DNA from: Candidatus Saccharimonadota bacterium
GTDB lineage: Bacteria > Patescibacteriota > Saccharimonadia > Saccharimonadales > Saccharimonadaceae
Assembly: GCA_002421785.1 (NCBI GenBank)
Contig: DIRZ01000001.1
Span: 30,001-62,000, forward strand
Reading direction: 5' to 3'
Length of the DNA: 32,000 bases
This document shows, one piece after another, positions 1,523-18,489 of the stretch. A program made the translations under genes and the position numbers. Each line of letters opens with the position of its first letter. The first letter of the stretch is position 1. The notes beneath the pieces were generated by a model. That model was not told the DNA's origin and did not search any database. It was given only the letters and a program-made list of their open reading frames with translations.

Positions 1523-2845
1523 ATGGCCTTTAAACCACTCCCTGTACTCTCCATCACACTTGACCGCATCGTTGGCGGGGGTCAGGCTATCGGCACGCTT
1601 GAAACTGGCAAAAAAGCCTTTGTTTGGAATGGGCTTCCCGGAGAAACCGTTTCGTTCCAAGTCACCAAAAAGAAGTCGCATTTTGTCGAAGGCATCGCCA
1701 CCGAAGTCCAAAACCCCAGCACCGAACGCACCGCACCTGACGACCCCGACAGCTACCTCAGCACAAGTCCGTGGCAAATGATGACCTTTGACGCTGAACA
1801 GCACTATAAAGCCGCGCTCATCGAGGAAGCGTTTGAGCTTCACGATATCGTGCTTCCGGAGACAATCGAAGTATATACTGATGGCCGCACGGCGCACTAC
1901 CGCAACAAAGTTGAATTCAGTTGGTATAGTGACACCGACGCCAGTACTGGTACCGAAACACTAGACCTAGCGTTCTTCCGGCGCGGAAGCAAGGGGAAGA
2001 TAAAGATTACCGAATGTTCATTGCTGCCCGAAAGTATCATGCAAACAGCCTTAAAAGTCCGCGATATCCTACGGACTAAAGGCATTACTGCCCGCAGCCT
2101 TAAAACACTCCTTATTCGCTGCGACCAGCAAGGGAATACCGTCTGGCAGCTCTACGTGAAAGAGAATCTCGCCGATATTATCAGCGCTAGTGAGGCGACA
2201 ACGCTTGGCACTCAGGGTGGCGAAATCATCTATAGCGACCCTCGTAGCCCTGCCAGCCGCATCACGCAACGGCTTACAAAGTTTGGCAATGTCGTCCTAT
2301 GCGACACCGTCCTCGACGTGCCGTTCCGCTACGCAACCGAGGGATTCTTCCAGGTAAATGTCCCAGTTTACGAGCAAGCGCTCCGCGATATGAAGCAATG
2401 GGTGGAAAACAAGCCCGTAATTGACCTGTATAGCGGCGTAGGGAGCATCGGGCTAACCATCGGCGGCGACCATGTCACATTGGTTGAAATTAACGAAGAT
2501 GCCGTTCGCGAAATGAAGCGTAACATTGCCGCACTCGGCAGGGAATCATCGGCGACACCAGTACTCGCAGCAAGCGAAAAAGCCCTCGACTATATTACGA
2601 GTGAGGGCTGCATTATCGTCGATCCACCACGTGCCGGCCTGCATGCAGACGTCATCGCGAAGCTACTCGAGGCTGCACCGCAACGAATTATCTATCTTAG
2701 CTGCAACCCCGTTACCCAGGCGCGCGATATTGCGATGCTTGCCGCGGGCTACGGAATCCGCGCGCACCGTGGGTATAACTTTTTCCCGCGCACCCCACAT
2801 ATTGAGCACCTGATTATTCTTGATAAATTACCTGGCCGCAACTAA
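1523..2845 (+). CDS. TRAM-domain SAM-dependent RNA (uracil-5)-methyltransferase (RumA/RlmD/TrmA family)
   Basis: N-terminal TRAM-like region; 'FFQVN'; SAM-binding motif 'VIDLYSGVGSIGL'; 'DPPRAGL'; catalytic-Cys motif 'YLSCNP'. Confidence 0.85.
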   Translation: MAFKPLPVLSITLDRIVGGGQAIGTLETGKKAFVWNGLPGETVSFQVTKKKSHFVEGIATEVQNPSTERTAPDDPDSYLSTSPWQMMTFDAEQHYKAALIEEAFELHDIVLPETIEVYTDGRTAHYRNKVEFSWYSDTDASTGTETLDLAFFRRGSKGKIKITECSLLPESIMQTALKVRDILRTKGITARSLKTLLIRCDQQGNTVWQLYVKENLADIISASEATTLGTQGGEIIYSDPRSPASRITQRLTKFGNVVLCDTVLDVPFRYATEGFFQVNVPVYEQALRDMKQWVENKPVIDLYSGVGSIGLTIGGDHVTLVEINEDAVREMKRNIAALGRESSATPVLAASEKALDYITSEGCIIVDPPRAGLHADVIAKLLEAAPQRIIYLSCNPVTQARDIAMLAAGYGIRAHRGYNFFPRTPHIEHLIILDKLPGRN

Positions 2846-2854
2846 GTATAAGCG

Positions 2855-2863
2855 TGATATACT
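2855..2863 (+). promoter_or_regulatory. Extended -10 element TGaTATACT, 6 nt upstream of ATG 2870 (leaderless-type)
   Basis: Sequence gcgTGaTATACTaaaaacATG read directly. Confidence 0.45.
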
Positions 2864-2869
2864 AAAAAC

Positions 2870-3292
2870 ATGAAGCGCTCTTCAGGGTTTACTATTGTTG
2901 AACTGGCCGTCGTTATTGTTGTACTTGCTATCCTTGTTACTGTTACTGTCGTCTCTTTCGGACGGGTTCAGTCTGACGCGCGCAATACGTCATCCGACGC
3001 CAAGGGAGTTGCGATTGCCGAAGGACTGGAACGTTACTACGAAACAAATGGCGAATACCCTAGCTGTGCGCTTGTGACACAAGCAAATACGGCCACTGTC
3101 ACATCTACCGTCTTAAAGGGGCTCGACCCAAACACGCTCACGCGGGCAGGGGCAACATCTGGAACGAACTCCATTGACTGCAACGCACCGGGCGCGACAA
3201 ACTTTGCCTATAGCGGAAATTCAAGCGGTTACACCCTTAGTTACCGCGAAGAAAGAACTGGACAAATTGTAACATTCACAAGCAGGCACTAA
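2870..3292 (+). CDS. Type IV pilin / pseudopilin with prepilin N-terminal cleavage-methylation motif
   Basis: 'MKRSSG|FTIVELAVVIVVLAILVTVTVVSF' is a classic G/FT(I/L)(V/I)E class III signal plus hydrophobic helix. Two Cys in the C-terminal half suggest a D-region-like disulfide. The ORF ends at TAA 3290-3292. Confidence 0.9.
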   Translation: MKRSSGFTIVELAVVIVVLAILVTVTVVSFGRVQSDARNTSSDAKGVAIAEGLERYYETNGEYPSCALVTQANTATVTSTVLKGLDPNTLTRAGATSGTNSIDCNAPGATNFAYSGNSSGYTLSYREERTGQIVTFTSRH

Positions 3293-3514
3293 GCCGCAGT
3301 CGAGACAACCGCCAAACCGACCATTGCTGTCGCATTCAGCGGAGGGAACGTCGTTGCTACCGCCAGTACCACGACCACCTGCACAAACAGCCAGACGCTT
3401 TATTCATTCAAACACAAACTAAACAACAATGCCTGGACAAGTTATGGCGCCGCCTCTACTTCTAATACAGCATCACAGCCAGCCACACCAGGCTATCAGT
3501 ATGCCTACCAGGTA

Positions 3515-4204
3515 ATGGCCCAGTGCTCAGCCAGCCCCACCATAGCTGAAAGTGATATTTCGAGCACAATCATCTACCCAGTTCCGACACCTGCTGCGCC
3601 TTCGCTCACGGTCAACATTTCTGGGTCAAACGTAGTAGCTGCACTAGCAGCGCCATCCTGCCCAGCCGGCACCACCCCGCAAAATAGCATCCAATGGATC
3701 GATACCGCCACCAACGCTGGGGGATCTTGGAATTCATGGGCTCCATGGAATCCATCATCAACCTTTAACAACAGTCACGCTATCAACCAAGGCGCTCGTT
3801 CAACTTACCGTGGCCAAGCTTATTGCGATGGTCTGTTCGCCGACAGCGCTACCGTTCAAACGGCGACCGTATCTGCGATACGTCCCATCGCTACCCCCGC
3901 AACACCTGTATGGAATTCGCAGTACAACTATTTCTATAGCTGCGACGGCGGCTGCTGGCGCAATAATGTCAGCTTCACCACGGCATGCCCCGCAGGTACA
4001 TGGCTAAATAGTACGAGCTTCGATTCGCATCCTGAATGGAAACCAGCTGAAACGTGGTGGCACCCTTGGGTCTATTCTGATTGGTGGTATACCGGCAGCG
4101 CCTCAAACCAGTATGTTTCCTACTATGCTCGCTACACGTGTGCAACAGACTTTGCTTCGGCAACATCTGCGGATGGATATTACAGAGTGGTCGTTTACCC
4201 ATAG
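3515..4204 (+). CDS. Cys/Trp/Tyr-rich tandem-domain surface protein; the frame is open back to 3293 and in-frame with the pilin ORF
   Basis: ATG 3515 is the first start codon. Codons 3293-3514 contain no stop and no ATG/GTG/TTG, and they encode a module homologous to the one after 3515. There is no signal peptide after M3515. Confidence 0.55.
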   Translation: MAQCSASPTIAESDISSTIIYPVPTPAAPSLTVNISGSNVVAALAAPSCPAGTTPQNSIQWIDTATNAGGSWNSWAPWNPSSTFNNSHAINQGARSTYRGQAYCDGLFADSATVQTATVSAIRPIATPATPVWNSQYNYFYSCDGGCWRNNVSFTTACPAGTWLNSTSFDSHPEWKPAETWWHPWVYSDWWYTGSASNQYVSYYARYTCATDFASATSADGYYRVVVYP

Positions 4205-4211
4205 GAAAATT

Positions 4212-5105
4212 ATGAGCAATATACCAATACAAGAACCCCACCCCCTGCGCCGCGTCCTCAAGTACATGGGTGTCGCTGTCGTCGCCTGCTTATTTATCGC
4301 AGGCACCGCACTGCTCGTTGTCTGGGCGCTCAAAACCATTACTTCGAAGTCAGCCCAAAGCACCGATTCGCTTAAAGTAGCAACGCCTGTTAAACAGGTA
4401 TTTGCCTCGCTTGTGTCTAAAGATGCGGTTGCTAGCCTTGGCAGCGATAAATATACTACGCGGCCAATGGCGTCGAGCGACATTTACTATAAAGACGGTT
4501 CGCATCCATATGGAGTCAGCGTGAGCACTGATTTCACGCAGCTCTACGAGCCGATAACACCGAGCACTAGCGACGATACCACAGCAGTAAATGCCGATGT
4601 TGAGCGGCTACTCGCTCAATATGATATGACTGCGGTAGATTCGCCAAAACCGCCCAGCAAAAGTATTTCGTATAAATCGTTCGCAAATACAACCATCATT
4701 TGCCAAATTCGCACAACCACACCCGCAGCAGAATCAGGCTTACCCCGACTGCACCAACTAAGCTGTGTCGACAAAACAGATATTTCTGACAGATACGCAC
4801 GAATCGAAGCCTTACTTTCCGTTTATGCCACTTCCGCCGGAACCCTTAAGCCTGAGCTCGTTAGTTATACTGAGGAATCAGAGAATGACGTGAGCTACAC
4901 GCTACTTGCCATCACCACCGACACTTCTACGAAGAATCTATTATTTGCGAAGGTGGGCAAAACGACAGAATTCCTCGCCGATCTTGCCGAGGGCGACCAG
5001 TCATTCAACAACGGCAAGTACAATATCACCCCCGAAGTCAAACGCAAAATTAGCGATCCCAAATATAACGGCTTTCTACTTCGGCAAATTGCCGGCATTC
5101 AGTGA
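4212..5105 (+). CDS. Membrane-anchored hypothetical protein (single N-terminal TM, Ser/Thr-rich extracytoplasmic part)
   Basis: ATG 4212 is preceded by AGGAAAA. 'VLKYMGVAVVACLFIAGTALLVVWAL' is a TM anchor. The longer ORF from 4113 would overlap the upstream gene. Confidence 0.7.
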   Translation: MSNIPIQEPHPLRRVLKYMGVAVVACLFIAGTALLVVWALKTITSKSAQSTDSLKVATPVKQVFASLVSKDAVASLGSDKYTTRPMASSDIYYKDGSHPYGVSVSTDFTQLYEPITPSTSDDTTAVNADVERLLAQYDMTAVDSPKPPSKSISYKSFANTTIICQIRTTTPAAESGLPRLHQLSCVDKTDISDRYARIEALLSVYATSAGTLKPELVSYTEESENDVSYTLLAITTDTSTKNLLFAKVGKTTEFLADLAEGDQSFNNGKYNITPEVKRKISDPKYNGFLLRQIAGIQ

Positions 5106-5656: not shown

Positions 5657-8600
5657 ATGAGCATGTTTGAAACTCGGTACAAAAAACTCAACACAGCGCA
5701 GCGCAGTGCTGTTGATACTATCGACGGACCGCTGCTGGTGATTGCCGGCCCTGGAACCGGCAAGACCGAGCTTCTCAGTATGCGAGCAGCGAATATACTG
5801 CAAAAAACGGATACGCTGCCTCAAAATATCCTCTGTCTTACCTTTACTGATAGCGGAGCCAACGCCATGCGAGAACGACTGGCCACTATCATTGGGCCCG
5901 ACGCTTACAAGGTCGCTATTCATACATTCCACAGTTTTGGCACGGAAATCATTAATCAAAATAACCATTATTTTTACCATGGCGCCGAATTTGCCGCCGC
6001 AGACGAACTAAGCAGCTACGAGCTGCTCAATGGCATATTTGACGAGCTCGATTATACCAATCCGCTAGCCGGCAAACTAAACGGTGAGTATACCCATTTA
6101 TCCGACGCTATGCGTATCATCAGCGAACTAAAGCAGGCAGGTTTATCAAGCGACGAGCTCCTTGCGCTCATCGCCGCCAACGAATCGACGCTGAACAGCA
6201 TCGAGCCAGACATCAGTACTATTTTCGCAAGCAAAATTAATCAGTCAATGCTCGCACAGCTCGCCCCGCTGGCAGAAAAAGTCGCCAAGCAACCCCAGCC
6301 CAACCTACCCCCAGCAATCACTCCACTTGCCAACGTACTCGCACTCAGCATGGCTCACATGTTCGACGAAGCCGTGCGCTTAAATAAAACCACGCCAATC
6401 ACGGCCTGGCGTAATGCATGGTGCGAAAAGAATAGCGAGGGAGTGTTTGTATTTAAAGACCGCAAACGTCACGCAAAGCTCCGCGCAATGAGCCACATAT
6501 ACTTTACTTATCTGTCACGCATGGAACAGTCCAGCCTTTATGACTACGACGATATGATTCTAAATGTCGTGCATGGCATGGAAACGCAACCCGACCTCAA
6601 ATTCAATTTACAAGAAAAATACCACTACATTATGGTCGACGAATTCCAGGATACGAACCTCGCACAGCTGCGTATTCTTTTTGGTCTGACCGACAACCCA
6701 GCAAACGAAGGAGCACCCAACGTCATGGCGGTCGGGGACGACGACCAGGCGATTTATAGCTTCCAGGGTGCAGACATCAACAACATCCACCGTTTTCGCG
6801 AGCAATATCCAACAGCCGCACTTATTACGTTAAAAGATAATTACCGCTCTACGCAGACAGTCATCGATCATGCACGCGAGGTAATTACCCAAGGCGAAAA
6901 CCGACTCGAAACCACAATGGAGCAGCTCGACAAATCGCTCGCTGCACACTTAGCTGCCGACGAAACCAGCGTGAGCTTACATGAACTACCAACCGCTAAT
7001 GATGAGCGCGCATGGGTAGCCGCATCTATCGCGGCGCGGCTAGAATCAGGGCAGGATCCCGCCTCCATCACCATCATCGCGCGTCAACACAACGAACTTA
7101 TCGAGCTATTGCCATACTTATACCATCACGATATTGCCGTCAACTATGAACGACGCGACAATGTACTAGACATCCCTGTCATTCAAGTTATCGAGCTCAT
7201 TGCGCACATTGCCGTGTCGCTCCACGAACGACGCCTCGACGAAGCCGATAGTTTATTGCCGCAGCTTTTGGCCCACCCTGCATTCGCACACAGCCCAGAG
7301 CTCGTATGGCGCACCAGCCTTACCAGCTACCGCAACCATCTCACATGGATGGAAGTCATGGCAACAACACCTGCGCTTGCCCCACTCCATGCATGGCTCA
7401 TCGACCTTGCGAGCAAAGTGCCAAACGAACCAATTGAAACCATCATCGACACTATCATTGGCGTCCCAACCGAAACTAATGACGAGCAGGCCAGCGCATA
7501 TGTTTCGCCACTCTATGAGTACTACTTCGGCGCACAAGTGCTCGAAGCAACACCAGATGCGTATCTCGTCACCCTCGAAGCCCTACGGACTATCCGTAGC
7601 AAACTGCGTGACTACCACCCCGGTGATTCACTTCATATTACAGACTTCCTGGAATTCGTCCGCATGCATCGCCAACTTGGCAGCACCCTCACGAGCACAC
7701 GCCGAAGCAGCGACCGCGCCGTCGGCTCCATCAATCTCATGACCGCCCACAAGTCGAAGGGGCTCGAGTTTGCAACTGTATATATCGTTGGTGCCGTCGA
7801 CACCAAATGGGGGGAGCGGGTGCGTAGCCGTAGTCGACTGATTTCGTACCCAGAAAACCTACCTATTAGTCCTGCTGGCAGCACCTACGACGAACGCCTG
7901 CGACTCTTTTTTGTCGCGATGACACGGGCCAAGGTGGATTTGATTATTAGCTACGCCGACTCTGCCGACAATGGGCGCAGCAGCCTCGCCGCCAGCTTCC
8001 TGACCGGTACTACCCTTAAGGTCCAAGCTGTTGCGTCGCAGGCCTCTTTAGCAGACGAAACCAAGCAAGCAGAATTAGCATGGCACGATACGCTGACGAG
8101 GCAGCCAACCCGCACCATGCGTGAGCTGCTCGCACCGCAGTTGGAAACGTACAAGCTATCAAGCACACACCTGAACAACTTCATCGACATCACCCGAGGT
8201 GGTCCAGTGACATTCCTCATGAACAATTTGCTCCGTTTTCCCCAAGCCAAAAGCCCCAGTGCAAGCTACGGAACAGCGGTTCACCGTGCTCTGCAGCGCG
8301 CACACAACCACCTCGTCGCAACGGGTGACAAGCGACCGATCGAAGATGTACTGGGGGACTTCGAGCGCGAACTGCGCGATCAGCACCTCTCTGAAGACGA
8401 CTATAGAGTATACAGTAAAAAGGGTGTCGATAGCCTCGGCGCCTTCTTGCACGCCAACTATGCCACGTTCACCCCGACACAAAAAACAGAGCTTAGTTTT
8501 GCCAACCAAGGCGTAGTCGTAGACGGCGCCCGGCTCACCGGTTCGCTTGACCTCGTAGACATAGATAATAACCACATTGTAGTGACAGATTATAAAACTG

Positions 8601-8947
8601 GCAAGCCAAGCAAGAGCTGGAAGGGCAATGCCGACTATGAAAAAGTGAAACTACACAAATACAAGCAGCAGCTGATGTTCTACCAACTGCTCGTCGAAAA
8701 CTCACGTGACTATCACAAGTACGAATACGGTGGTGGTATACTGCAGTTTGTCGAACCTGACCAAGCCGGGCACATCCATGCCCTTGAAACGACTATTACC
8801 GCCGACGAGCTGGCTCGCTTTAGGCAACTCCTCGCCGCTGTATGGCACTGCATTACGACGCTCGACCTACCTAATATCGACGACTTCGATAAATCATACA
8901 AGGGTGTGCTCGAATTCGAACAACACCTTATTGACAAATATGCCTAA
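5657..8947 (+). CDS. UvrD/PcrA/AddA-like superfamily 1 helicase fused to a C-terminal PD-(D/E)XK (RecB-type) nuclease
   Basis: Helicase motifs: 'AGPGTGKT' (Walker A), 'VDEFQDTN' (motif II), 'NYRST', 'TAHKSKGLEF', 'VAMTRAK'. C-terminal nuclease motifs: 'LDLVDID..VVTDYKTGK' and 'QQLMFYQLL'. Confidence 0.9.
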   Translation: MSMFETRYKKLNTAQRSAVDTIDGPLLVIAGPGTGKTELLSMRAANILQKTDTLPQNILCLTFTDSGANAMRERLATIIGPDAYKVAIHTFHSFGTEIINQNNHYFYHGAEFAAADELSSYELLNGIFDELDYTNPLAGKLNGEYTHLSDAMRIISELKQAGLSSDELLALIAANESTLNSIEPDISTIFASKINQSMLAQLAPLAEKVAKQPQPNLPPAITPLANVLALSMAHMFDEAVRLNKTTPITAWRNAWCEKNSEGVFVFKDRKRHAKLRAMSHIYFTYLSRMEQSSLYDYDDMILNVVHGMETQPDLKFNLQEKYHYIMVDEFQDTNLAQLRILFGLTDNPANEGAPNVMAVGDDDQAIYSFQGADINNIHRFREQYPTAALITLKDNYRSTQTVIDHAREVITQGENRLETTMEQLDKSLAAHLAADETSVSLHELPTANDERAWVAASIAARLESGQDPASITIIARQHNELIELLPYLYHHDIAVNYERRDNVLDIPVIQVIELIAHIAVSLHERRLDEADSLLPQLLAHPAFAHSPELVWRTSLTSYRNHLTWMEVMATTPALAPLHAWLIDLASKVPNEPIETIIDTIIGVPTETNDEQASAYVSPLYEYYFGAQVLEATPDAYLVTLEALRTIRSKLRDYHPGDSLHITDFLEFVRMHRQLGSTLTSTRRSSDRAVGSINLMTAHKSKGLEFATVYIVGAVDTKWGERVRSRSRLISYPENLPISPAGSTYDERLRLFFVAMTRAKVDLIISYADSADNGRSSLAASFLTGTTLKVQAVASQASLADETKQAELAWHDTLTRQPTRTMRELLAPQLETYKLSSTHLNNFIDITRGGPVTFLMNNLLRFPQAKSPSASYGTAVHRALQRAHNHLVATGDKRPIEDVLGDFERELRDQHLSEDDYRVYSKKGVDSLGAFLHANYATFTPTQKTELSFANQGVVVDGARLTGSLDLVDIDNNHIVVTDYKTGKPSKSWKGNADYEKVKLHKYKQQLMFYQLLVENSRDYHKYEYGGGILQFVEPDQAGHIHALETTITADELARFRQLLAAVWHCITTLDLPNIDDFDKSYKGVLEFEQHLIDKYA

Positions 8948-9319: not shown

Positions 9320-10267
9320 ATGAATTCATTTTGGCACAACCTACCGCGACCGTTCTTCGTCCTTGCTCCTATGGAAGCAGTTACGGACGTCGTGTTTCGT
9401 CATGTCGTGTCACAGGCAGCCCGCCCAGACGTATACTTTACTGAATTTACCAACGCAACTGGCTGGTTCCGTGCTGGCGACAAAGCCATCGGCGGCCGCC
9501 TGATTAAAACCGATGACGAAAACCCCATTGTAGCGCAGCTGTGGGGGAGCGATCCCGAAGCAATGGCCGCGCTCAGTCAGCACTGTGCGACGCTTGGCTA
9601 CGATGGGATTGATATCAACATGGGTTGCCCCGACCAGTCCGCCATCAAGGGCGGCGGGGGAGCGGGCATGATTCGTACTCCCGACGTCGCCCACCAAATG
9701 ATTGCTGCGGCAAAAACGAGCGGTCTGCCCGTGAGCGTCAAAACACGCCTGGGCTACACCTATGTCGACGAGTGGCAAGACTGGCTCCGCGGACTGCTCG
9801 AACAAGACATCGCAGTGCTTACAGTCCACCTGCGCACCAAAAAGGAAATGAGTAAAGTGCCTGCGCATTTTGAGCTGATTCCAAATATTATAAAGCTACG
9901 CGACGAAGTCGCACCGCAAACTCTGATTGTCATTAATGGTGACGTGCGCGACCGTGCACATGGCCAGGAATTTGCCGAAAAATATGGCGTCGATGGGGTT
10001 ATGATTGGCCGCGGCGTCTTCACAAACCCTTATGCATTTAGCGCCAACGCTATGCCGACACGTGAGTCACTGCTATCCCTATTGCACACACATCTCGACT
10101 ATTACGACACCTACGCACATCGTACAGGCAGGCCATTTGAAACGCTCAAGCGATTCTTTAAGATCTACGTTCGTGATTTCGAGTGCGCCAGCGAGCTCCG
10201 TGATACATTGATGCATTGCAACAGCACCGACGAGGTGCGAGTAGCCCTTGGCGCCCTAAAAATATAG
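9320..10267 (+). CDS. dus: tRNA-dihydrouridine synthase
   Basis: 'FVLAPMEAVTDVVFR', 'GIDINMGCP', 'LTVHLRT'; TIM-barrel flavoenzyme pattern of the Dus family. Confidence 0.9.
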   Translation: MNSFWHNLPRPFFVLAPMEAVTDVVFRHVVSQAARPDVYFTEFTNATGWFRAGDKAIGGRLIKTDDENPIVAQLWGSDPEAMAALSQHCATLGYDGIDINMGCPDQSAIKGGGGAGMIRTPDVAHQMIAAAKTSGLPVSVKTRLGYTYVDEWQDWLRGLLEQDIAVLTVHLRTKKEMSKVPAHFELIPNIIKLRDEVAPQTLIVINGDVRDRAHGQEFAEKYGVDGVMIGRGVFTNPYAFSANAMPTRESLLSLLHTHLDYYDTYAHRTGRPFETLKRFFKIYVRDFECASELRDTLMHCNSTDEVRVALGALKI

Positions 10268-10371: not shown

Positions 10372-10418
10372 GCACACCGCGCTAGAGCCAATCCTTGCCA
10401 AAACTCAGTCGCGCGCGA

Positions 10419-11294
10419 CTACGTCGCCAGCGCAAAGTCCTGCTGTCCGACGCGTCGACGGGCATAGACAGGCAAGTCACCGTTCGTCAGCGTCGCTGCA
10501 ACCGCAAGTGTACGAATCAGGAAGTCGGCGTAAGCAGTCTGGGCGAGCTCAGTCCTATCGCCCTCGACGCCATTACTCTGAGCGATATTTGCGATCGCCT
10601 CGGCATACATACGACCACGCCAAACATCTACTACAAATGCCTGGACAGTCTCTTGTACACCCCCGTCCCGTATGAGTTCGTCAAAGGCAACCTGGTCGAA
10701 TGTGTCACCCTCGATATCGTTCAATACAATCACGTCTTCCTGGTGGCCGCCGGCCAGTTTTTTTATCACCGCGCCATCTTTAGTCATCAAATCCATCGTA
10801 TCCCTACCCGCAGCGTTGCTGAAGTAGACACCATCGTCCGCCAAGTCTTCGTATACAGCAAAGGCCCTACTAACAGCCGGAAGGGCTGCTTCATAGCTAG
10901 CACCGTACAACGCCTGGAGTGTCGTGGAAATCTGCGAACGGTAGCGGACGATATTGTTCGAGATGTCAGGATACTTATCAATCGCACCACAGCCGCATGC
11001 AGTACCTTCAGCATGCTCATCACAATGGCCACCATAGTCTAGTCCACGAGCGGATAGCTGCCCGGCAATAAACTCGCGGTCGCCGAGCAAGGTATTTCCA
11101 TCATGCGGAGCACCCGAGACTGCGCGCCACATACTCGAGGCGACGACCAGCCCGCCACCAAATACTTTGGCGCGTGGGTATGATTTATTGTAGTGAATCT
11201 CGTTACCTTCATCATCAACAACCCACGTGTCCACAGCAGGACGCCCGTCGCCGCATCCGTCATCAGCGATCTCTGAGCTTATTGTCACAAACAC
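10419..11294 (-). CDS. Hypothetical protein with conserved-looking Cys/His/Asp clusters (possible metal site)
   Basis: GTG start at 11294; 291 aa. Motifs: 'DGCGDGRP', 'KVFGGG', 'GGHCDEHAEGTACGCGAID'. It is longer and less biased in composition than the antisense ORF 10395-11042. Confidence 0.75.
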   Translation of the reverse strand: MFVTISSEIADDGCGDGRPAVDTWVVDDEGNEIHYNKSYPRAKVFGGGLVVASSMWRAVSGAPHDGNTLLGDREFIAGQLSARGLDYGGHCDEHAEGTACGCGAIDKYPDISNNIVRYRSQISTTLQALYGASYEAALPAVSRAFAVYEDLADDGVYFSNAAGRDTMDLMTKDGAVIKKLAGGHQEDVIVLNDIEGDTFDQVAFDELIRDGGVQETVQAFVVDVWRGRMYAEAIANIAQSNGVEGDRTELAQTAYADFLIRTLAVAATLTNGDLPVYARRRVGQQDFALAT

Positions 11295-12473: not shown

Positions 12474-14043
<1,570 letters not shown>

Positions 14044-14044
14044 A

Positions 14045-14911
14045 TTATTTCAACGCCTCCACGCCAGCGCTGATTTCACTCAACTCCTGAGTAATCGCGC
14101 CTTGCCTCGCTTTATTCATTACCAACGTAAGGTCCTCGACTAAATCGGTTGCGTTGTCCGTAGCGTTCTTCATGGCGAGCATGCGCATACTGTGCTCGCT
14201 CGCGCGCGCGTCCAGTAGCGCCTGGAACAACTGAGCACCGACAAGCCGGTAGGCGGCATCGTCCAGAACGCGCTGTACATTCGGCTCGAATAGTGAATCT
14301 TTCACAAATTCGCTCGCCTCTACGGCTTCATACCCAGCGGGGAAGAGTCGCGTGACGGCAGAAACCTGCGTAATACTGGTTACAAACCGTGTATGCACTA
14401 CGTCAACGGCGTCCACTTCACGAGATTCAAAAGCATCTTTTGCACTGTTTAAAATTGCATGGAACTCCGACCCTTCAGGATAGTCTGAAAGGTCTTCGTA
14501 CACGCCCATCACCTGAGTATCCTTCAATCGCGACACAAATGCCGAAGCTTTACGCCCCACGGCTATCGTCTTATTCGAAACGCCCTGCTTGTCATCTTTC
14601 CGCAACAATCCCACATATTCTTTCAGGACGTTTGCGTTATAGGCTCCAGCAAGCCCCTTGTCGCTTGCAATGACGATGATAAGTCGGCTCTTTATGGGGC
14701 GAACGTCGAACCATTTATGGCCATCCGTCGCGCCTTGGCTCGCAAGGTAGCTCAGCAACTCATTAGCTGCCCTGGCATACGGCGCAGAGCCTTTTGTTGC
14801 ATCCTGGGCACGGCGCATTTTGCTTGCCGCGACCATTTGCATCGCCTTCGTAATCTGCTTGGTACTTTTAACCGAGCGGATACGTGATTTTAATTGCTGA
14901 GTCGAGGCCAT
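14045..14911 (-). CDS. atpG: F1 ATP synthase gamma subunit
   Basis: 'LKSRIRSVKSTKQITKAMQMVAASKMRRAQ' N-terminus and 'ITQELSEI' C-terminus. The start overlaps the atpA stop (TAATG). Confidence 0.95.
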   Translation of the reverse strand: MASTQQLKSRIRSVKSTKQITKAMQMVAASKMRRAQDATKGSAPYARAANELLSYLASQGATDGHKWFDVRPIKSRLIIVIASDKGLAGAYNANVLKEYVGLLRKDDKQGVSNKTIAVGRKASAFVSRLKDTQVMGVYEDLSDYPEGSEFHAILNSAKDAFESREVDAVDVVHTRFVTSITQVSAVTRLFPAGYEAVEASEFVKDSLFEPNVQRVLDDAAYRLVGAQLFQALLDARASEHSMRMLAMKNATDNATDLVEDLTLVMNKARQGAITQELSEISAGVEALK

Positions 14912-16446
14912 TAGCCTTCAAACCCCTTCGCGACAGATTTTGCGACTTTTTCAATAAGCTTGCCAGCATCACTGCCGCTTTCCAGCTTTTCAGCGCCCTT
15001 GGTCAGCTCTTGCATGTCTTTCTTGTGATCGGTCCACAAACGAGTCAACAATGCACGCTGGGCGTCCTTGATTCTGCTCGCAGGAATTTCATCAAACAAG
15101 CCCTCGCTCACAGCGAAGATACTTGCAGCCTGCTCCCACACGCTCATGGGCTGATACTGAGCTTGCTTGAGTAGCTCTGTCAACCGTTGTCCACGTTCAA
15201 TCTGGCTCTTTGTCGCTTCATCAAGGTCGCTACCGAACTGCGCAAAACTTGCGAGTTCGCGGAACTGGCTCAGGCCGAGTTTTAGGTGACCACTAACGCT
15301 TTTTACCGTCTTGGTCTGGGCGTCACCACCCACGCGGCTTACTGACAGTCCGGCACTAATAGCTGGTCGGATACCCTGGTAGAACAAATCTGTTTCCATA
15401 AAAATCTGGCCATCGGTGATTGAAATCACGTTGGTTGGAATATATGCGCTAATGTCACCAGCCTGCGTCTCAATAATAGGCAACGCCGTAAGACTTCCGG
15501 CACCCAGCTCATCGCTCAGCTTGCTTGAGCGTTCGAGCAGGCGTGAGTGAAGGTAAAACACGTCACCAGGAAACGCTTCGCGGCCCGGTGGGCGGCGCAA
15601 GAGCAGGGACATCTGGCGATATGCAACAGCGTGCTTCGTTAGGTCATCATAAATCATCAATGCGTGCTGTGCGTTGTCGCGGAAATATTCGCCCATCGCG
15701 GTACCTGCATAGGGAGCGAGATAGAGCAGGGAAGCAGGGTCAGACGGACCCGTAGCAACCACGATAGTCTGATCCATCACACCTTCTTCGCGGAGGCGCT
15801 CCACGAGGCGTGCAACTTTACTGAGTTTCTGACCAATCGCAACATACACGTTTACGACACCAGTTTTTTGCTTTGCCTGGTTAATCATCGTATCGATGGC
15901 AATAGCAGTCTTGCCAGTCTGACGATCACCGATAATCAGCTCACGTTGGCCGCGACCAATAGGGAACATGGCGTCGATAGCCATAATACCGGTCATCATT
16001 GGCTCGTGCACGTGCTTTCGCCCTAGAACGCCAACCGCTTCACGCTCAACAAGACCGCGAGCCTTCGCGTTAATCGCAGGACCGCCATCAAGTGGCTCGC
16101 CAAGTGGACTCACCACGCGACCCAAGAGCTCTGGCCCAACCGGAACAGATAATACCTCACCCTTTAGTTTCACGCTGTCACCAGCAGAAACGCCCTGATC
16201 ACTGCCAAGTAGCACTGCGCCGATTTCATCTTCCATCAGGTTGAGAGCAAACGCCTCTACGATTCCTGACTTTGTCTCAATTTCAAGCACCTCGCTATAA
16301 CCTGCATCGGTGAGCCCATGCACCCATGCTACACCGTCACCCACGCGGGTCACGATACCGACAGATTCAAGCTTTTCGCTCATATCTAGTTTGGCAATCG
16401 CATCACGCAGGCCTTTTGATAGTTCTGTAACTGCTATATCAGCCAT
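14911..16446 (-). CDS. atpA: F1 ATP synthase alpha subunit
   Basis: 'GDRQTGKT' Walker A. ATG 16446 is preceded by AAAGGA and a 6-nt spacer; the track start 16449 is a TTG. Confidence 0.95.
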
Positions 16447-16458
16447 CAATCGTCCTTT

Positions 16459-16842
16459 CTATTGCTTTGCCCGGCGCAGGGCCAGGATTTTACGTTGTAA
16501 TGTTGCATCAAGTTTCGCCCCTGGCGTCTCGAGGCGTACGCCGCCAAGTACGTCGGGGTTGACGACCTCACGCAGGTGCACATTAGGTGCACCAATGAGC
16601 TTTTTTACTTCAGCGCGCTGCTCTGCGTCGAGCGGATGGGCCGTCGTAACATTCGCCACCACGTCGCCAGCCCGAGCCAACGCATCTTCGATGGACCGCA
16701 CGACGAGTGTTTGTTCGCGCACGCGACCACTTTCGAGCAAATATGCAGCCACCTCGTCCAAAACGCTCGCGACAGAGTCGCCTGCCGTTATCCGGCTTGC
16801 GGCATATTCCGCAATTTTGCGCCGAGGTATTTTACGCTGCAT
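16459..16842 (-). CDS. atpH: ATP synthase delta (OSCP) subunit, unusually short (127 aa)
   Basis: Operon position between atpF and atpA. The C-terminal part 'VVNPDVLGGVRLETPGAKLDATLQRKILAL' matches the delta consensus. Confidence 0.8.
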   Translation of the reverse strand: MQRKIPRRKIAEYAASRITAGDSVASVLDEVAAYLLESGRVREQTLVVRSIEDALARAGDVVANVTTAHPLDAEQRAEVKKLIGAPNVHLREVVNPDVLGGVRLETPGAKLDATLQRKILALRRAKQ

Positions 16843-16845
16843 AAA

Positions 16846-17388
16846 CTAGGCGTCTCCAAGCGCAGCTTTTATGACACTGTTGTCGACATTTGCATTCACC
16901 GTTTTGCCGACAACTTTTTCGGTCGCCTGCGCAACAAGCTCAATCGTCTCGTTATGCAGTGCTTTTTTGGCGGCGAGCACTTCTTTGGCGATTGAATCTT
17001 GCGCCTGCGCAACAATATTCTCCGCCTGCTGCTTGCTCTTAGCTTCTGCATCGGTCAGCATCGCACCAGCTTCGCTTTTGGCGGTTGCCACGATTTCACG
17101 CGCTTCACTACGCGCCTGAGCCAAAAGCTTATCAACTTTTTCTTGGCTTTCGGTGGCGCGCTTGCTCGCTTCTACGGCAGCACGCGTGCTTTCTTCAATC
17201 TGCGCCTCGCGCTTGTCGAGCATTGCGACAAGTGGCGGATACACGAACTTCTTGAGAAACCACAGCAGCACCAAAAATGCTATCGTCTGTAGTACCAACA
17301 GTTTCCAGTCGATGCCTATCGACGAAAACATGTCAGCTTTTTCGACTGCCACTTCGCTACTCGCAAATTGTGTTAATAAATCATTCAC
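16846..17388 (-). CDS. atpF: Fo ATP synthase b subunit
   Basis: GTG start; one N-terminal TM helix (LLVLQTIAFLVLLWFL), then a long Ala/Glu/Lys-rich helix. Operon position supports the call. Confidence 0.85.
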   Translation of the reverse strand: MNDLLTQFASSEVAVEKADMFSSIGIDWKLLVLQTIAFLVLLWFLKKFVYPPLVAMLDKREAQIEESTRAAVEASKRATESQEKVDKLLAQARSEAREIVATAKSEAGAMLTDAEAKSKQQAENIVAQAQDSIAKEVLAAKKALHNETIELVAQATEKVVGKTVNANVDNSVIKAALGDA

Positions 17389-17402
17389 TGAGTATCTCTA
17401 CC

Positions 17403-17615
17403 TTACATAACCTTGCCGACAATAGCGACGATAAAACCAATGATCGCCAGGGCGTCGATAAACGAAATACCCAAAATCATCATTGTTCGTAGGTCGTTCA
17501 TCTTCTCTGGGTTACGGCCAGCTGCGTTCATTGCTGCCATACCGACCATACCGGCACCGATTGCAGCAAAAGATGCTGGTAGTGCATAAGCAAGTGTAAA
17601 TGCGATTGATTCCAT
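17403..17615 (-). CDS. atpE: Fo ATP synthase c subunit
   Basis: 70-aa helical hairpin, loop 'GRNPE', carboxylate in helix 2 'SFIDALAI'. Strong SD AAAGGAGAA. Confidence 0.9.
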   Translation of the reverse strand: MESIAFTLAYALPASFAAIGAGMVGMAAMNAAGRNPEKMNDLRTMMILGISFIDALAIIGFIVAIVGKVM

Positions 17616-17631
17616 ATTGATTCTCCTTTTA

Positions 17632-18489
17632 TTAACTAACTAATTCTTCACCCCTCAACCGAGCCCTGGGCGCGTCAGATGAAGAATGTTCGAGTATGGG
17701 GGTGTGTGCGTGGTCTTCGTCACTGCCGTGATGTTCCATGCCCAGCGATATAAACACAGTCGAAAGCATGAAGAAGATATATGCCTGGATTCCACCGATA
17801 AATAGCTCGAACAAATAAAACGGCTGCAGCGCGAGCGGGGAAATAAACTGCGTAAGGTAGGCGATCATAATAAGCAGCACCTCGCCCGCTAAAACGTTGC
17901 CGAACAAACGGAAGCTAAGCCCAAGCAGACGCGAAAGCTCGGCGATGAGCTCGAGGATGCCCACAAACGTCATGATGGGATCTTTTAGTGGACTTACGAA
18001 GTAGCGCCCCATATTACCCTTGAAGCCAAGGTAGCGGAAGGCGTACACCTGCGCTGACACGATTGTCACAATCGCGAGCGCGAACGTCATGTTGAGGTCG
18101 GCCACCATACCGCGGAAGAGCGGAGTGCCGTCATGCAGCGTAATTGGACCAACGAAGGGGAGTAATCCCATGTAGTACTGCGAGATGACGAAGAAAAAGA
18201 TCGTAATCGTTAGCGGCGCGACGCGGCGAGCCCAAGCGGCTTCAGGAATAATCTGATGAACCGTGCCATAGAGGCCCTCGAACACCCACACGACCAGTCG
18301 CGTCAAGAAGTTATGAGCTTTTTTGCCCTGCACGGCTTGCTTAGTACGTAGCAATGCCCACACCATAACGATAAATCCCAGTAGTCCAAGCAGGTGGGAA
18401 TTGGTTATGCTAATACCACCAACCAAAAAAATCTCCTGCGCTTTGACAGAAATGTGGGGGCCAGCCGCTGCAAACGACTGAAGCATCAT
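17632..18489 (-). CDS. atpB: Fo ATP synthase a subunit with His/acid-rich C-terminal tail
   Basis: 'LSFRLFGNVLAGEVLL' contains the essential Arg motif. ATGA overlap with the upstream ORF. Confidence 0.9.
   Translation of the reverse strand: MMLQSFAAAGPHISVKAQEIFLVGGISITNSHLLGLLGFIVMVWALLRTKQAVQGKKAHNFLTRLVVWVFEGLYGTVHQIIPEAAWARRVAPLTITIFFFVISQYYMGLLPFVGPITLHDGTPLFRGMVADLNMTFALAIVTIVSAQVYAFRYLGFKGNMGRYFVSPLKDPIMTFVGILELIAELSRLLGLSFRLFGNVLAGEVLLIMIAYLTQFISPLALQPFYLFELFIGGIQAYIFFMLSTVFISLGMEHHGSDEDHAHTPILEHSSSDAPRARLRGEELVS

Follow-up and report, generated by a model that had tools for sequence, protein, structure and literature searches.

Is a type IV prepilin gene that ends at a single TAA, with 303 further codons standing open in the same frame behind it, a complete gene, the first part of a read-through product, or the remnant of something longer? 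This question is raised by positions 2870–4204 (+ strand) of a 32,000-nucleotide stretch of a Candidatus Saccharimonadota genome (contig DIRZ01000001.1), which we refer to as the window; related loci that were fetched for comparison carry L-numbers, and related proteins carry P-numbers. Our answer is that 2870–4204 probably represents a naturally occurring nonsense allele, in a Saccharibacteria population, of a gene for a modular type IV pilin. In Saccharibacteria, which are ultrasmall episymbionts, type IV pili have a central part in finding and binding host bacteria (PMC11623550, PMC9894109). Modular pilins, in which a short linker joins a functional module to a pilin module, are widespread and have been well described (Raynaud et al. 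2021, PMC8179133).

The prepilin gene and the open frame behind it

2870–3292, + strand: short (truncated) type IV prepilin gene, 140 codons and TAA (Pfam/NCBIfam scores, AlphaFold2 model)
3290–3292, + strand: premature stop TAA at codon 141, in the predicted linker between the pilin module and FN3-like module 1 (TAA, TGA or CAA in relatives)
3293–4204, + strand: 3' portion of the modular gene, probably a relic, with 303 sense codons and TAG (translation, AlphaFold2, Foldseek)

The 140-codon open reading frame (ORF) begins at ATG 2870 on the + strand and closes at the TAA of 3290–3292. Its frame is then open again from 3293 to the TAG at 4202–4204, giving 303 sense codons. Translation of the window confirmed the original prediction that the prepilin and the downstream open frame share one frame and are parted by a single TAA, and also that 3293–3514 is free of stop codons and of ATG, GTG and TTG, with ATG first occurring at 3515. 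The N-terminus of the prepilin consists of the leader MKRSSG, followed by FTIVE and a hydrophobic α-1 helix. The ORF scores 26.0 bits against PF07963 (N_methyl; cutoff, 21.2) and 19.8 bits against TIGR02532 (cutoff, 16.3), and the product of 2870–3292 has the class III signal peptide that defines a type IV pilin. In the AlphaFold2 (AF2) model of a fused allele of this gene, P0014, described below (predicted local distance difference test score, pLDDT, 86.6), there is a predicted helix at residues 9–60 and there are predicted strands at residues 112–116, 121–126, and 133–137. In this model, the globular pilin module ends at residue 137, so that the product of 140 residues is predicted to contain the whole of it.

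The downstream frame is predicted to encode three FN3-like modules

3320–3562, + strand: predicted fibronectin type III (FN3)-like module 1, residues ~10–90 of 303 (AF2 strand pattern); covers the start-less stretch and continues past ATG 3515
3605–3880, + strand: predicted FN3-like module 2, residues ~105–196 of 303 (AF2); conserved Cys pair C123/C178 in the alignment
3908–4195, + strand: predicted FN3-like terminal module 3, residues ~206–301 of 303; holds the family's most conserved motif, YTCATDFASATSA
3515–4204, + strand: 229-residue ORF of public databases (P0005, P0001, P0011), an artefactual gene call that begins mid-domain

What does the downstream frame encode? The AF2 model of 3293–4201 has a mean pLDDT of 85 and contains three β-sandwich modules. 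When this model was compared with the PDB by Foldseek, the top matches were tandems of FnIII domains (contactin, titin, and fibronectin), with E-values from 7e-9 to 1e-6 and a probability of 1.00. The whole-chain template modelling (TM) scores of these matches are low, 0.25–0.45, because the domain orientations differ. By structure comparison, then, 3293–4201 is predicted to have an FN3-like fold, while a search of the same region with Pfam and NCBIfam profiles gave no match even at E ≤ 1, so that it is not recognised as fn3 by sequence profile. The three modules of the model and the FnIII matches also bear out the earlier claim that the start-less stretch encodes a module homologous to the later ones.

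The start of the 229-residue ORF, M3515, is residue 75 of 303 and lies within the β-strand at 69–78 of module 1 in the AF2 model. No signal peptide follows M3515, as had been predicted, and 3293–4204 likewise has neither a start codon nor a signal peptide of its own. The promoter scan found no promoter-like site in 3293–3514. Because the start of the 229-residue ORF falls inside a module-1 strand, and because there is no export signal, this gene call is an artefact of the missing start. The public 229-residue "hypothetical protein" 3' of the pilin is the stranded tail of a modular pilin, not a gene.

Fused relatives point to one ancestral gene

The most direct evidence on the origin of the two parts comes from a natural fused allele. 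P0014 has 444 residues and falls in the same 90%-identity cluster as the window products, and its codon 141 is CAA (Gln); around this codon, it reads TFTSKH-Q-AAVETTAKPTIAVAF. It is recorded on 6 contigs, the fused loci are L007–L010, and fused alleles were seen in one run series only, SRR310210xx. In the AF2 model of P0014, the last pilin strand (133–137) is followed by a linker at residues 138–150, with lower pLDDT, and module 1 starts at residue 151. Codon 141 is thus predicted to lie in the interdomain linker, 3–4 residues past the last pilin strand. Because the natural fused 444-residue allele has CAA at codon 141, we conclude from the sequences that 2870–4204 was formerly one 444-residue modular pilin gene.

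More distant relatives have the same architecture. A word-indexed search with the 303 residues returned three clusters: a 229-residue close relative, a 294-residue protein (48% identity), and a 438-residue protein (41% identity). The last of these, P0003, has an N-terminal prepilin motif and is a fused form. About ten orthologues, of 435–456 residues, share the full architecture (e.g. P0003, P0019, and P0022), and the residue at the stop position in the fused orthologues is Q, L, K, S, N, T, or G. An exhaustive profile search for the module family gave 261 representatives at E ≤ 0.001, and in most of them the module match starts ~130–350 residues from the N-terminus. A GFT-type prepilin motif occurs within the first 60 residues in 89 of the 147 newly found representatives, and most of the others have an AFT-type variant. 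An 881-residue pilin bearing the same modules is found at L006. The GTDB species genomes scanned for relatives gave no match, and a metagenome scan gave one distant fused pilin.

A pilin and an extra C-terminal module are joined in one polypeptide in P0014, P0003, P0019, and P0022, and not in the window allele, in which the TAA at 3290–3292 stands between them. As in other modular pilins, independent folds are joined by a short linker, here three predicted FN3-like β-sandwiches and residues 138–150. The locus belongs to the modular pilin family, and the window allele encodes the pilin module only. The proposal that 2870–4204 is, or was, a 444-codon modular pilin broken at codon 141 is supported by P0014 and by the fused orthologues of 435–456 residues. 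Among the orthologues compared, fused or split, none was found to have the downstream part as a gene in its own right, with a start and a signal peptide. The sole relative with a downstream ATG of its own, P0002, lacks a signal peptide, and a 1-nucleotide frameshift lies between it and its pilin.

The stop at codon 141 and its spread

Codon 141 is TAA in the window and in 13 fetched loci (L001, L011–L013, L015–L020, L028, L035, and L036), and it is TGA in 10 fetched loci (L014, L021–L027, L029, and L030). The stop-bearing loci come from many ENA, JGI, and Logan samples, assembled with different assemblers. The 140-residue pilin, counted as ten listed variants and the window's own, is on at least 131 contigs, compared with 6 for the fused form. 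The exact 140-residue product of the window is on record from 6 contigs, from four sources, and a close relative, P0007, is annotated as Candidatus Saccharibacteria bacterium 32-50-10. The recurrence of the same frame relation and stop position in 24 fetched sequences indicates that the arrangement is no chance effect. The stop is genuine and cannot be put down to a sequencing error or to a variant genetic code. An alternative genetic code was rejected, as the ordinary genes of the window end in TAA (9), TAG (10), and TGA (3).

The stop is found on two tract backgrounds, a window-like one, AGG CAC TAA/TGA GCC, and an L007-like one, AAA CAC TAA GCT (L035 and L036). Over nucleotides 301–540 of the gene, the L007-like stop allele differs from fused L007 by 2 nucleotides. 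Either the change of CAA to TAA arose twice, or a very short conversion tract carried it. A single origin of the stop was considered and given up in favour of at least two backgrounds, since L035 and L036 have TAA on the L007-like tract. The identical 140-residue pilin, P0010, is followed by TAA in L028 and by TGA in L021–L027, and the same large deletion lies behind TAA in L011 and behind TGA in L014. Both observations suggest that recombination has been frequent at distances of no more than a few dozen bases from the stop.

Decay downstream of the stop

3442–4896, + strand: segment deleted in the commonest stop alleles, L011–L020 (blastn mapping, junction sequences); 1455 bp, AGCTAC microhomology
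4164–5078, + strand: segment deleted in the TGA alleles L021–L024; 915 bp, junction at the 9-nucleotide repeat CTTCGGCAA
4212–5105, + strand: 297-residue protein with one N-terminal transmembrane segment; no Pfam/NCBIfam match

If the tail is a relic, what has become of it in related alleles? It is intact in the window and in L001. In L035 and L036, which have TAA at codon 141, there is a second in-frame stop, where the family's invariant Trp codon has changed from TGG to TAG, together with a 12-nucleotide deletion of the conserved YQYA strand and several replacements. With the deletion of 4164–5078, L021–L024 have lost the whole of the next gene, and module 3 has had its last 12 codons replaced; the product is P0011. 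The private changes in the tail of L021 are 4 nonsynonymous and 1 synonymous. In L011–L020, with either TAA or TGA, the next gene now lies only ~360 nucleotides from the pilin gene. All of the fetched stop alleles have kept the 140-codon pilin ORF intact, and its ratio of nonsynonymous to synonymous polymorphism (pN/pS) is ~0.1 in the comparisons with enough differences.

The stop alleles form a stepwise series of domain loss, from an intact tail, to the 915-bp deletion, to a second nonsense mutation with the 12-nucleotide deletion, and to the 1455-bp deletion. This decay series supports a nonsense mutation with a pseudogenised 3' part, the first of three explanations offered in the original prediction. 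Retention of the pilin module beside a decaying tail is likely to represent natural domain loss, and not recoding. The gene of the 297-residue protein adjoins the modular pilin in L001, L002, L005, and L007, and it is missing in L011–L024. Both of the independent deletions that remove FN3 sequence take out this gene too, and the 297-residue membrane protein may be a functional partner of the FN3 array.

Is the tail still under selection?

Three observations weigh against the domain-loss interpretation. First, the 303 codons are perfectly intact in the window and L001, with pN/pS of 0.04–0.10 throughout. Second, in the start-less stretch the window and L001 differ by 39 synonymous and 7 nonsynonymous changes, with a nonsynonymous to synonymous rate ratio (dN/dS, omega) of 0.02. 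At face value, the low downstream pN/pS suggests continued translation. Third, the stop is also on the second, L007-like background (L035), so its history is not a simple single origin.

A site-by-site alignment shows that the locus is a mosaic of deeply diverged haplotype blocks with recombination breakpoints. We compared five stop haplotypes (the window, L001, L021, L011, and L014) in sliding windows, with fused L007 as the reference. In the 60 nucleotides 5' of the stop (3230–3289), the five differ by a mean of 1.0 nucleotide; in the other bins 5' of the deletion junction, the same five differ by 4–8 nucleotides. Furthermore, in the bin 3230–3289 all five are 7–9 nucleotides from L007, whereas each of the remaining bins has one or more of the five close to L007. 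The tract that holds the stop is probably much younger than the flanking blocks, since the low diversity is confined to 3230–3289. The low downstream pN/pS would then reflect old, recombining blocks that predate the stop, and not selection after it. The low dN/dS of the start-less stretch was therefore rejected as proof of translation past the stop, given this mosaic around a young stop tract of low diversity. The open frame itself is also not informative. Only 4.5% of the possible substitutions in 3293–4201 create stops, and the chance that an untranslated relic stays open is 0.5–0.8 at 0.5–1.7% divergence. Because this stop-creating fraction is low, the intact tail is no evidence of function.

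A second truncation in a sister species

A sister species (L002–L004; 48% identity) has a pilin of 141 residues ending in TAG, with the FN3 ORF in a different frame. Exactly 1 nucleotide is missing at the codon homologous to codon 141 (L002 2975–3003, and also in L003 and L004), and the linker lengths are otherwise equal. In the alignment, the ATG of the 294-residue ORF in L002–L004 falls on a residue inside the linker, and this ORF encodes no signal peptide. By comparison of these sequences, L002–L004 represent a second, independent truncation at the same domain boundary. A programmed −1 frameshift in L002 was considered and rejected, as there is no slippery heptamer or homopolymer in the 19-nucleotide overlap window.

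Recurrent splits at the same boundary across the wider family were also considered and rejected, since the frameshifts in L031 and L033 differ, and L032 and L034 are cut by the contig end. L031 and L033 have one frameshift each, at different positions, in two assemblies of one JGI project, and they are otherwise fused; these frameshifts are probably errors. As a separate observation, L031 (286–1745) and L033 (1582–3791) come from another species, at the same syntenic site after the tRNA U5-methyltransferase gene, and in them an FN3-like module and then an RCC1 propeller come after the pilin. It appears that different C-terminal modules have been swapped onto the same pilin at this locus.

Proposed history

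The history that we propose would begin with an ancestral 444-residue prepilin, made up of a class III signal peptide, an α-1 helix, a pilin module, a short linker, and three FN3-like modules. Its pilin module would polymerise into the filament and so display the array of three FN3-like modules. The change of CAA to TAA at codon 141 would end translation in the linker, and a complete pilin of ordinary size, 140 residues, would be made. The 303 downstream codons would no longer be translated to any selected extent, and the tail in the window would be intact only since there has been too little time for decay. In related strains, additional nonsense mutation and microhomology-mediated deletions would be removing the relic. 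The neighbouring gene for the 297-residue membrane protein would, like the tail, have turned dispensable and been lost.

We infer a functional short pilin, and a truncation at the domain boundary that has been either tolerated or favoured. Only in the linker would a stop leave a correctly folded pilin and no partial domain, and this may explain why independent events cluster there. The dominance of short alleles, the presence of the stop on two backgrounds, and the matching truncation in the sister species hint that loss of the FN3 array may have been favoured (e.g. by altered host binding or by escape from pilus-binding phages) rather than merely tolerated. The locus gives a clean natural domain-loss series within one Saccharibacteria population, with fused alleles, a boundary stop, secondary lesions, and deletion. 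Having or lacking the FN3 array is a candidate basis for differences between strains in host binding or in phage exposure.

Alternative explanations

Could the two states be a selected, reversible switch in the population? In such a switch, long adhesive and short alleles would be maintained under host or phage pressures and interconverted by the TAA/CAA transition or by recombination. Both states do occur within one >90%-identity cluster, the stop is on both window-like and L007-like backgrounds, the locus is a mosaic of recombining blocks, and a sister species has been truncated independently at the homologous codon. However, deletions and secondary lesions make most of the stop alleles irreversible, the fused alleles come from the single run series SRR310210xx, no repeat or homopolymer is present to drive rapid switching, and no one sample was seen to contain both states. 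We consider such a switch unlikely.

Read-through of the stop, leaky or programmed, would provide a rare 444-residue, FN3-bearing pilin beside the abundant 140-residue pilin, and thus adhesive subunits in or on the pilus. Three stop haplotypes that diverged deeply from one another (the window, L001, and L021) have the frame open over 303 codons, the downstream pN/pS is low, and the stop falls exactly in the predicted interdomain linker, so that the product would fold. Basal read-through occurs at 1e-4 to 1e-3, which could give about one long subunit per ~1000-subunit pilus. However, in most stop alleles the tail is partly or almost wholly gone or is broken by a second stop, so the extension is dispensable there. 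It is not conserved with the stop, since it is deleted or disrupted in L011–L024, L035, and L036, all of which are stop-bearing. The stop context is TAA-G, and TAA followed by G is an efficient terminator context in Escherichia coli. TAA and TGA interchange freely at this codon. No stimulatory RNA structure was found, the fold of 3275–3400 being no more stable than shuffles (z = +0.52), and there is no Rfam match in 2600–4400. The window has no tRNA genes, and the scan found no terminator-like site after 3292. Haplotype blocks that predate the stop tract would account for the low pN/pS. Functional read-through, another explanation of the original prediction, is unsupported, given the absence of a stimulatory structure or Rfam element, the TAA-G context, and the loss of downstream sequence in most stop alleles, and it is quite improbable, although leakage at the basal level may occur. 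It is slightly harder still to credit that, in strains with an intact tail, read-through yields about one FN3-tipped subunit per ~1000-subunit pilus, with one gene giving both a major and a rare adhesive subunit. If this were true, the deletion alleles would be lineages that gave up the read-through product.

A functional split, in which the FN3 part is made separately by reinitiation at a non-canonical start (e.g. ATT 3323–3325) or at ATG 3515, has very little chance of being correct. The ATT at 3323 is conserved in L001, and in L002–L004 an ATG 14 nucleotides after the pilin stop, at the start of module 1, opens a 294-codon ORF. However, the products would have no signal peptide or pilin N-terminus, though the modules have conserved Cys positions of the exported type. 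ATG 3515 is inside a predicted β-strand of module 1, the separation of the ORFs in L002 is a frameshift lesion in which the ATG is an internal Met codon, and other alleles delete the downstream part.

Finally, although a single base, T versus C, parts the two states, a sequencing or assembly error at 3290 in a gene that is truly intact over 444 codons, the remaining explanation of the original prediction, is refuted for practical purposes by the window's exact 140-residue product on 6 contigs from four sources and by the recurrence of TAA or TGA at this codon in a further 23 fetched loci, in many independent assemblies from different samples and assemblers.

The preferred interpretation thus remains that of a natural nonsense allele undergoing domain loss, and the locus is no evidence for new recoding biology.

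Other features of the locus and the window

2858–2863, + strand: −10-like box TATACT, putative promoter for a leaderless or very short-leader mRNA (read directly, 6 nucleotides 5' of the pilin ATG)

The TATACT box is also immediately 5' of the pilin ATG in L001, L002, and L005, with a spacing of 6–10 nucleotides, and so has been kept across species. A Shine-Dalgarno sequence is absent ahead of the pilin ATG. These features suggest that the pilin mRNA is leaderless or near-leaderless. The promoter scan did not call TATACT at 2858–2863, since there is no −35 box. The pilin gene is an orphan, with a tRNA methyltransferase gene on one side and a UvrD helicase gene on the other, and no PilD, PilB, or PilC gene was found among the window ORFs scanned, the scan covering the window only.

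A 735-residue protein is encoded at 19016–21223 (− strand). It has a non-canonical pilin-like N-terminus, RGFALPTIV, with no Glu5, and RCC1 β-propeller repeats broken by a ricin-B lectin domain. It resembles the TM7x PilX2 adhesin candidate (PMC11623550), with the lectin insert in addition. The ORF at 10419–11291 (− strand) has a marginal match to the cadmium carbonic anhydrase repeat PF18484 (30.1 bits; cutoff, 29.2) and overlaps a + strand ORF at 10395–11042. An ordinary F-type ATP synthase operon, with the A, B, alpha, gamma, and beta subunits, lies at 12474–18489 (− strand). Other genes of the window encode Nramp (20–1513), a TrmA-like methyltransferase (1523–2845), UvrD (5657–8947), and Dus (9320–10267).

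Comparison with known systems

In the Q-beta A1 coat protein, the ORF of a structural subunit is followed by an in-frame extension past a single stop, which is reached by programmed read-through. In the stop alleles of the present locus, by contrast, no leaky context, stimulatory structure, or conservation of the extension was found, and membership of this class is unsupported. The "Pam" pilus of the candidate phyla radiation was considered and set aside, as it is a different, donor-strand-exchange system.

Among modular pilins, FN3 (IPR003961) is one of the 15 commonest grafted domains in the published survey (PMC8179133). The closest architectural parallels are PilB and PilC of Streptococcus sanguinis (PMC8179133), which, like P0014, have a class III signal peptide, a small pilin module, a linker, and one or more C-terminal modules that are not specific to pili. 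The graft in the present family differs in being three tandem modules, predicted to be FN3-like, from a family with no Pfam model; in the window, moreover, it is cut off by a stop codon, so that the product is the pilin module only. The minor pilin CofB of enterotoxigenic E. coli (PMC8179133) likewise has an all-β extension, made up of β-repeat and β-sandwich domains, on the pilin C-terminus via a flexible linker. However, CofB is a type IVb minor pilin encoded in a dedicated operon, whereas the gene here is an orphan, and the likeness is one of architecture, with no sequence relationship seen.

Within the same phylum, PilX1 and PilX2 of TM7x are pilins with extra C-terminal domains that have been proposed to bind host-cell glycans (PMC11623550). 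These Saccharibacteria pilins have been implicated in host binding, and the report on PilX1 and PilX2 makes no mention of truncated alleles, stop codons, or pseudogenes (PMC11623550). The extra domains of PilX1 and PilX2 are a β-jelly roll or a β-propeller, whereas those of the present family are predicted to be FN3-like.

The allelic state of the locus, in turn, resembles that of inlA in Listeria monocytogenes, in which common natural premature-stop alleles shorten a surface adhesin and coexist with full-length alleles. Compared with inlA, the truncation here falls at a predicted domain boundary and leaves a complete and probably functional pilin, and the relic of the lost part can be traced through successive deletions in related alleles.

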